Shown: positions 61,233 to 61,559, counted from the stretch's first letter. The stretch is 64,000 bases of DNA from an uncultured Eubacteriales bacterium (GCA_900322215.1 ONYW01000003.1:9199-73198), one strand, 5' to 3'. Program-made: numbers and translations. Notes: generated by a model not told the origin, from the letters alone.

Positions 61233-61559
61233 TTGCCTGTCGGCAAGCGATTGCCTTAGGCATGATGTTTGCTTGTAGCAAATGATGTGCCAGAGGCATG
61301 ATGTTTGCTTCGCAAATGATGTGTGCTTCGCACATTGTGGAGAAAATACACAGCAAGCTGTGATGATATACAATCCTGCGGATTGATGATATACACGCAA
61401 AGCGTGATAGAGGAAAAATAAAAATATTTTTTATCCTCAATTGCAAACACCGTTTGCTACATCATTGTGGACAAAGTCCACTACATCATTGATTGCCTTG
61501 CAATCTACATCATTGCGAGCAACGCTCGCTACATAATTTCATTTGTTCACAGCAAATGA
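61233..61559. repeat. Cluster of three mini-hairpin arrays with constant linkers
   Basis: Array I (61233-61334): ATGATGT x4. Array II (61349-61405): GATGATATAC x2. Array III (61443-61538): TACATCATT x3 plus TACATAATT, alternating with 15-bp palindromes at a 24-bp period. Confidence 0.9.

Follow-up and report, generated by a model that had tools for sequence, protein, structure and literature searches.

Gut-1 has been described as a likely non-coding RNA on the strength of covariation, and as known only from human-gut metagenomes (Weinberg et al. 2010, PMC2864571). The published alignment includes converging GUGAUAU.../...AUAUCAC arrays that follow tRNA genes and terminators (PMC2864571). The family has been in Rfam since 2010, where it is filed as gene/sRNA. 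The literature searched names no function for it, and no later functional work was found.

The transcribed REPs of E. coli stabilise the mRNA upstream of them and, when located near a stop codon, can lower translation of the upstream gene. BOX elements are built as boxA-boxB(n)-boxC from sequence-conserved modules of 45–59 nt. Hairpin-forming and lacking their own transposase, they number more than 100 copies. The attC sites of integrons are imperfect palindromes of 57–141 nt bounded by GTTRRRY and are served by a tyrosine recombinase of the IntI type.

The hairpin block described here lies in a window of 64,000 nucleotides, the whole stretch of DNA that was analysed. The window belongs to a metagenome-assembled genome (MAG) of an uncultured gut Christensenellales (G000), which has 1.59 Mb in 65 contigs, a G+C content of 47.8% and a completeness of 94%. 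Relatives go under names such as Christensenella sp. UBA767 and UMGS. The block, at 61231–61560, is composed of three modules of a dispersed Gut-1-type repeat in a divergent form with AUGAUGU and AUGAUAU linkers, as its architecture shows.

Anatomy of the hairpin block

The block occupies the 359-bp spacer (61188–61546) between two genes of the minus strand. The upstream ORF is taken to be asnA, a name that comes from the original prediction and from the conserved gene upstream of aspS in relatives. Modules were defined by reading each array in the direction in which its linker is RTGAWRT. Read in this way, they share one polarity: [linker-hairpin]n is preceded by a long first hairpin and closed by RTTGNGGAARAA. 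The features are as follows.

59439–61187, minus strand: aspS (aspartyl-tRNA synthetase), ORF downstream of the insertion, 75–91% identical in relatives
61231–61347, plus strand: module I, six short hairpins with ATGATGT linkers and an end motif
61233–61246, 61252–61262, 61269–61281, 61289–61297, 61305–61315 and 61323–61333, plus strand: hairpins of module I
61262, 61282, 61298 and 61316, plus strand: the four ATGATGT linkers of module I
61334–61347, plus strand: 3′ motif of module I, ATTGTGGAGAAAAT
61348–61419, plus strand: module II, three hairpins with ATGATAT linkers and an end motif
61349–61362, plus strand: module II hairpin CACAG-CAAG-CTGTG
61371–61385, plus strand: module II hairpin CAATCC-TGC-GGATTG
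61394–61406, plus strand: module II hairpin CACGC-AAA-GCGTG
61363–61369 and 61386–61392, plus strand: ATGATAT linkers of module II
61407–61419, plus strand: 3′ motif of module II, ATAGAGGAAAAAT
61410–61438, no strand assigned: central AT-rich inverted repeat, the facing 3′ motifs of modules II and III
61426–61537, minus strand: module III, four hairpins, each with a 6-bp stem and a 3-nt loop (from 61560 if the long hairpin is counted)
61426–61441, minus strand: 3′ motif of module III, ATTGAGGATAAAAAAT
61443–61457, sense on the minus strand: module III hairpin GCAAAC-ACC-GTTTGC, read from the sequence
61467–61481, sense on the minus strand: module III hairpin GTGGAC-AAA-GTCCAC, read from the sequence
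61491–61505, sense on the minus strand: module III hairpin GATTGC-CTT-GCAATC, read from the sequence
61515–61529, sense on the minus strand: module III hairpin GCGAGC-AAC-GCTCGC, read from the sequence
61530–61537 (degenerate), 61506–61513, 61482–61489 and 61458–61465, minus strand: linkers of module III, AATGATGTA
61538–61560, minus strand: first (long) hairpin of module III, TTCATTTG-CTGTGAA-CAAATGAA
61547–62554, minus strand: asnA (aspartate-ammonia ligase), ORF upstream of the insertion

Module III is therefore sense to asnA by strand, and modules I and II are antisense to it. As RNA, the linkers of the block read AUGAUGU seven times and AUGAUAU twice. The original prediction had described array III as strictly periodic at 24 nt, with four perfect stems of the form GnnnnC and 3-nt loops. 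A repeat search returns spacings of 24, 24 and 24, and the stems are exactly as claimed; each hairpin is followed by TACATCAT, except the last, which is followed by TACATAAT. Arrays I and II, with ATGATGT or ATGATAT between further hairpins on the strand opposite to array III, are present as well. The central AT-rich hairpin, which had been regarded as a separate part, does exist but consists of the 3′ motifs of two converging modules. The same centre, a GGA motif followed by an AT spacer and a reverse GGA motif, is also found at C15, C18, C44:6871, C46 and C59.

A chance origin of the block is excluded. In 61233–61560, 12 perfect hairpins with a stem of 5 bp or longer fit without overlap; the mean number is 1.2 (maximum 6) for 1000 shuffles and 1.8 (maximum 7) for 1000 random windows of the genome. 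Seven of the 16 ATGATGT words of the 64-kb window fall inside a 250-bp block, when 6.4 would be expected for the window as a whole. Both strands of the block also fold far better than their shuffles (z = -5.6 and -6.3).

Relationship to Gut-1

Within the window, the best match to Gut-1 covers module I (61224–61293) with 32 bits and E = 3.8e-4, and at the gathering threshold of 50 bits there is no match anywhere in the window. A search of the whole genome with the Gut-1 model (RF01706) gives 41 matches, nine of which reach the 50-bit threshold (50.3–61.8 bits). When 16 loci with linker clusters were scanned against Rfam, Gut-1 was the recurrent hit, twice above 50 bits. The window block has at least three consecutive short hairpins joined by the conserved (R)UGAWRU linker that characterises Gut-1.

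The linker variants that might seem to set the window copy apart are mixed inside single arrays, namely GTGATAT, ATGATAT, ATGATGT, GTGAAGT, GAGTTATAT and GCGATAT. An array at C18:9941 (51.7 bits) combines ATGATAT with GTGATAT, and those at C45, C46, C56 and C38 combine GTGATGT, ATGATGT and ATGATAT. The end motif RTWGNGGAWRAA is found in most of the arrays listed and in modules I–III, and the relative at C54:4554 terminates in ATTGTGGAAAAAT. The mixed linkers and the common end motif indicate that the window modules are divergent members of Gut-1 and not something else. The original prediction had staked its case partly on the arrays not matching a repeat family already described; in part they do, the family being Rfam Gut-1 (PMC2864571) and the window copy lying below threshold.

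The window contains a second array of the same family.

5183–5302, plus strand: five hairpins with GTTATAT and GTGATAT linkers and the 3′ motif GTTGTGGAAAAAAAT

This array scores 43.6 bits at C24:14402–14473, which corresponds to window positions 5204–5275. Its 3′ side is occupied by a brief remnant in converging orientation, after which comes a true terminator at about 5352–5378. Elsewhere in the window, a large ORF shows a tandem periodicity of 69 nt (23 aa) at 9162–10115, which we take to be typical of the leucine-rich-repeat surface proteins of gut Clostridia.

Linker clusters alone mark about 20 loci in the 1.59-Mb genome. The merged linker and Gut-1 lists give 58 candidate arrays, reduced to 55 by the removal of three clusters inside genes (C15:40152, C33:831 and C42:17576), which were dropped as chance occurrences. 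The density is roughly one array per 30 kb. A genome- and clade-wide search for such arrays had been proposed at the outset, and recurrence is found at both levels.

In Firmicutes, T-box leaders are common ahead of aminoacyl-tRNA synthetase genes, and as the block immediately precedes such a gene, it could be taken for a cis-regulatory leader of aspS, e.g., a T-box, an attenuator or an array bound by a regulator of Asp/Asn metabolism. This reading is essentially excluded. No T-box or other leader family matches at the block even at E<=10, or anywhere in the window at gathering thresholds, and the block is missing from the aspS of all relatives. The same arrays follow unrelated genes throughout the genome. 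More generally, a riboswitch, T-box or leader was rejected on the Rfam results, in which sub-threshold Gut-1 is the only match. Dedicated regulation of asnA or aspS by the block is not indicated.

Distribution and insertion

Gut-1 copies are present in 14 of 24 congeners, with 1–46 copies each, and absent from the other ten. No copy turned up in 16 other families of the order. Across the Clostridia, Gut-1 was found in 80 of the 399 genomes searched and in 46 of the 217 genera, compared with none of 14 control genomes. The ATGATGT sub-type occurs in rumen and gut Clostridia MAGs of other families, there too in converging pairs. A collection-wide scan for the linker-hairpin-linker pattern of module III gave 79 matches, most of them consistent with chance; nine are real converging arrays, in seven Clostridia genomes.

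In about 45 relatives whose AspS is 75–91% identical, the asnA-aspS spacer is array-free and measures 8–110 bp, mostly 30–60. The closest metagenome contigs that extend across the spacer are 91% identical in AspS; one contig with 96% identity begins inside aspS. A converging pair of arrays between glgA and glgP in this genome is likewise missing from about 40 relatives, two of which have a GlgA 93–94% identical. These array-free spacers show that the asnA-aspS block and the glgA-glgP arrays are recent insertions in the present genome. In three congeners that are 92–97% identical around one array, an indel of about 200 nt lies exactly at the array 3′ motif.

The comparison of the asnA-aspS interval had also been part of the original prediction, one of whose two readings was that the arrays are the ends of a mobile cassette whose central gene was lost. 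The short array-free spacers of relatives bear out the first half, since the interval is an indel relative to all of them and behaves as mobile or expanding DNA. The lost gene is not supported, because at many loci the element normally consists of two converging arrays with nothing but an AT-rich stretch between them. With relatives so diverged, no direct target duplication is definable at asnA-aspS or glgA-glgP; the junctions show inverted copies of the target.

Other repeats are found close to the arrays. In relatives (L183, L200), the glgA stop codon is immediately followed by another kind of hairpin element, some 125 nt long (aaccgcgctatt...ggttt). It occupies the site that holds the array pair in the present genome, and this site has been struck independently by two repeat families. 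In congeners, a repeat of about 125 nt (gtcattgcgag...ctcggaatgac) sits exactly between facing GGA end motifs (G016:C19, G004:C11 and G016:C2) and is missing in the sister species G021. The GGA motif may be a preferred neighbour or target of this congener repeat. At C59:1–1800, the tmRNA gene (600–965) is succeeded by two more copies that resemble the tmRNA 3′ end (...CCCCGCATCTCCACCA), each followed by the same terminator and a converging array pair; the observation also covers C15:24467–24795 and C18:9783–10089. These look like tandem att-site duplications that carry the arrays along.

Stem evolution

It had been proposed that structure is kept in the arrays while sequence is free. Hairpins and constant linker are indeed kept, but the sequence is less free than supposed, as paralogous modules share both stems and stem order. 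At C34:1210 and C44:27434, module III has paralogs with the same linkers and last stem (GCAAAC/GTTTGC) as its own; the remaining stems have diverged by compensated changes. When module II is aligned with six paralogous modules, 97.4% of cells are paired in the two shared helices, with eight double stem changes and no single ones. The common stems and stem order imply homologous copies that diverge by compensated changes. A four-hairpin master copy is conserved at many places in congeners. The C34 copy of module III includes the last 12 nt of asnA (CATTTGCTGTGA), which implies that it was copied from the asnA-aspS locus with imprecise ends.

A census of hairpins between linkers in this genome and ten congeners yielded 134 unique examples. 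Their 726 pairs comprise 706 Watson-Crick, 6 G.T, 5 A.C and 9 other pairs. The stems are thus 97% Watson-Crick, and wobble pairs are no commoner than their antisense equivalent. Loops of 3 nt predominate, and on the sense strand the loops are 50% T. At positions 1 and 6, the linker has only A or G, opposite T, so that an A-U or G.U pair is available on the sense strand alone.

Identical units stand in tandem at C25:17139 and in G004:C40. In the latter congener, a super-unit of 63 nt with three hairpins is repeated at least six times (G004:C40:13660–14120). Another congener has three copies of a unit of about 300 nt that joins an array to unrelated sequence (G013:C15:22550–23285). The very long congener arrays show local tandem amplification. 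Type-II modules are flanked by direct GGAAGAAT motifs.

Stem covariation, seen in the module II alignment and in the original description of the family (PMC2864571), is what would be expected if the arrays were functional structured RNAs. They would then act as stabilisers at 3′ ends or between cistrons, as processing platforms, or as decoys that capture an RNA-binding protein or RNase. The high copy number would reflect use by many genes, each array being a hairpin stack with GAW junctions transcribed with or after its upstream gene. The U-rich loops and the A-U or G.U closing pairs confined to the sense strand agree with this, as does the conservation of linker and 3′ motif across genera. 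The same stems, however, show no excess of wobble pairs and no one-sided changes among paralogs. The arrays are also missing at orthologous sites in relatives and wholly from 10 of 24 congeners, from which it follows that no gene depends on them. A functional RNA is a serious rival reading, though a less likely one, on which the gene context also bears.

Gene context and transcription

The upstream gene is co-oriented with the array in 36 of 53 cases (68%, p = 0.006), which favours a functional RNA further, and in 36 of 52 cases the gene downstream points towards the array. Adjacent array pairs are converging in nine cases and diverging in none. Several arrays sit between a stop codon and the true terminator and would hence be in the 3′ UTR (e.g., C36:21429), again as that reading would have it. 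Against it, many modules start right after a T-tract terminator, or are antisense to the only expected transcript, as modules I and II are. Some modules begin with a true terminator, and no conserved promoter accompanies the arrays.

In the asnA-aspS spacer, no array hairpin is followed by the T tract of an intrinsic terminator. A scan of 61000–61800 gave three weak terminator-like sites, none of them convincing, where shuffles average 0.8. No promoter-like site was found on the minus strand of the spacer (61188–61546). With neither a predicted promoter nor a T-tract terminator in the spacer, aspS is presumably transcribed through the arrays, or else from an unseen promoter.

TGA is present in all sense linkers, and whichever reading frame runs into a sense array therefore soon meets a stop. 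Frame closure by the linker TGA alone could favour the observed array orientation. The polarity of the family as a whole (asymmetric linker, T loops, R positions and co-orientation) fits either sense RNA or sense single-stranded DNA, and would be superfluous in a repeat of purely double-stranded DNA. The sense strand would be the lagging-strand template if the genes follow replication.

Carriage of a gene as cargo between arrays was considered at C51 and rejected. The 1.5 kb between the two best Gut-1 matches consists of an ORF of 289 aa with non-coding sequence upstream, and each array follows its own upstream gene. By its look, the ORF is presumably a pyridoxal-kinase-type gene. The non-coding stretch of about 440 nt before it (C51:27760–28200), between the two high-scoring arrays, may be a candidate structured leader.

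Junction hairpins at stop codons

The first hairpin of a module is often made of the last codons of the upstream gene. All 1129 genes were surveyed for perfect hairpins of at least 8 bp that span the stop codon and start at least 6 nt inside the gene. Sixteen genes have one: five of the 22 that bear arrays, as against 11 of the other 1107 (odds ratio 29, p = 7e-6).

At asnA, the long hairpin with which module III begins has the gene's last codons (I-H-L) as its 5′ arm and the stop TGA (61547–61549) in its loop. Relatives have similar native codons at this end of the gene, without the complementary 3′ arm past the stop. The junction therefore pairs native codons with a new complementary arm. 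The 13-bp palindrome at glgA (CTTGAAATTTACA...TGTAAATTTCAAG) is missing even in relatives whose GlgA is 93–94% identical. In an rlmI-like gene, a 12-bp palindrome was made within the native C-terminal codons, with one V-to-I change and synonymous changes. The stop-spanning hairpins of all three genes are missing in relatives, and the junction hairpins are derived from the target.

Mobilising enzymes

A protein of the REP/RAYT or HUH type had been suggested as the reader of the hairpins. The domain of such enzymes, PF01797 (RAYT/IS200 TnpA, Y1), was searched for with six control genomes in which it was expected, all of them positive. Array-rich genomes were those with 34–46 Gut-1 matches, a group of five congeners. 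No match to PF01797 was obtained in the present genome, nor in four of these five (G009, G010, G012 and G013, with 36–46 Gut-1 matches at E<=0.001). The domain does match in G004, which is array-rich, and in G007, which has no arrays. The suggestion is not upheld by this distribution.

An all-against-all comparison of ORFs found no multicopy IS-like ORF; only spurious small ORFs running through other repeats were returned. The genome has one tyrosine recombinase. A conserved enzyme of this type, of about 365–375 aa, is present in 24 of the 25 genomes searched, with and without arrays, and the one exception is a genome 62% complete. One conserved tyrosine recombinase in the genus, the sole one here, suggests a single-recombinase Xer system. 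A reading of the palindromic GGA centre as an Xer or integrase site was set aside because the lone recombinase also occurs in array-free congeners. An integron attC array was rejected too: the only tyrosine recombinase is not exclusive to array-bearing genomes, the hairpins measure 13–17 nt and the end motif GTTGNGG misfits GTTRRRY.

The enzyme might nevertheless be out of sight, i.e., a nuclease or transposase that recognises single-stranded hairpin plus linker, in REP/RAYT-like or MITE fashion, and is encoded on a phage, a plasmid or a missing part of the genome. The MAG is 94% complete, and the extragenic position at gene 3′ ends, the converging pairs reminiscent of REPINs and BIMEs, the patchy distribution and the rapid turnover would all suit such an arrangement. 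So would the conserved asymmetric linker beside each hairpin, as at HUH cleavage sites. It is still quite improbable. Beyond the PF01797 pattern and the lack of an extra integrase or multicopy IS ORF, the hairpins vary, whereas recognition of REPs needs a conserved palindrome. The junctions show inverted copies of the target and no definable direct target-site duplication, and the copy ends are imprecise, as the 12 nt of asnA in the C34 copy illustrate.

Proposed mode of propagation

Template switching is known to make and repair perfect hairpins in one step (PMC8794818), and quasipalindrome mutagenesis has been described as a template-switch process (PMC7202029). The Watson-Crick-only pairs, the double changes and the 3-nt loops form the pattern of intrastrand template switching (PMC8794818, PMC7202029), unlike that of typical structured RNAs. 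Together with the observed multicopy state, patchiness, strictly Watson-Crick stems and absence of RAYT and IS genes, this points to copying at the DNA level, slippage between linkers and fold-back template switching, in the absence of a dedicated transposase and with at most a generic REP-like effect at the locus. This explanation is held with a confidence somewhat above even.

Each module comprises a locus-specific long first hairpin, 3–6 short perfect hairpins, the 7–9-nt linker RTGAWRT and the end motif. Modules mostly lie just past a stop codon, oriented with the gene, and often form a converging pair, as they do here. According to the proposed explanation, whole modules would be copied to new intergenic sites at the DNA level with no element-encoded transposase, and units would multiply locally through slippage between linkers. 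Intrastrand template switching (fold-back copying) may produce the junction hairpin from the last codons of the target, and would also keep every stem perfectly Watson-Crick. At asnA-aspS, the element would probably be a tolerated passenger, transcribed in the asnA-aspS message and folding as a hairpin stack. As a side effect, it may shield the 3′ end of asnA or reduce read-through, in the manner of the REP/BIME elements of E. coli. The template-switch and slippage steps and the passenger role are inferred, the former from end products.

The strand polarity of the family and the rating of Gut-1 as a likely RNA on covariation (PMC2864571) count against propagation by template switching and slippage. 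So does the conservation of linker and 3′ motif across many genera, which is difficult to account for unless selection or a protein that reads them is involved. A mobilising gene could also be missing from a MAG of this completeness.

A bolder variant is that the arrays are largely built in place. Fold-back at the last codons would seed the stop-spanning palindrome, and linker slippage and fold-back would then add hairpins. If so, constant linkers and variable, wobble-free palindromes would be explained in 46 of 217 Clostridia genera, and linkers with TGA in all frames would make insertion at gene ends harmless. This variant is unlikely.

Comparison with known systems

The observation is genuine, but the block is one array locus among many. 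It is a composite, inserted recently, of a repeat family that is known but functionally orphan. Gut-1 emerges as a high-copy modular intergenic repeat that comes and goes between sister species and has a patchy spread over many families of gut and rumen Clostridia, with no transposase recognised. For annotation, this means that Gut-1 should be treated as a repeat family and not as a gene. Its arrays also help to explain some of the contig breaks in MAGs of these lineages. With its stop-region junction hairpins and strictly Watson-Crick stems, it offers a tractable case of possible propagation without a transposase.

The regular alternation of constant and variable segments is shared with CRISPR. 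The constant part here, however, is unstructured and only 7–9 nt long, and the variable part of 11–19 nt is self-complementary and unfit as a guide. There are 3–6 units per array, at about 55 loci, with no leader.

The resemblance to REP, BIME and REPIN elements is closer. These too are extragenic hairpin repeats at gene 3′ ends and inside operons, with mosaics of alternating or converging units and short conserved linkers, and they are present in dozens of copies or more with a patchy distribution by lineage. In REPs, however, the palindrome keeps its sequence; in the present arrays only the linker and the end motif are constant, and the stems vary within and between arrays. The units are also much shorter (hairpins of 13–17 nt), and the genome has no RAYT (PF01797).

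The BOX elements of S. pneumoniae, compared by description, are likewise modular intergenic repeats of a Firmicute, in which the internal units vary in number and the end modules are distinct. By the same comparison, they are without the logic of constant linkers and variable palindromes.

With the known products of template switching (PMC8794818, PMC7202029), the arrays share perfect inverted repeats made in one step, double changes without wobble intermediates, and inverted adjacent copies. The process is known as a mutational one that acts on single hairpins; it is not known as the source of a dispersed family of hairpin arrays joined by linkers.

The nearest system is Gut-1 itself, with its tandem short hairpins, conserved (G)UGAWAU linker, converging arrays after terminators and habitat in gut Clostridia. 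The window modules differ from it in their AUGAUGU and AUGAUAU linkers, in the 24-nt period of module III and in a score of 32 against 50 bits. The picture of the family differs as well: Rfam files a gene/sRNA of human-gut metagenomes only, whereas here it is a multicopy, patchy and recently inserted repeat.
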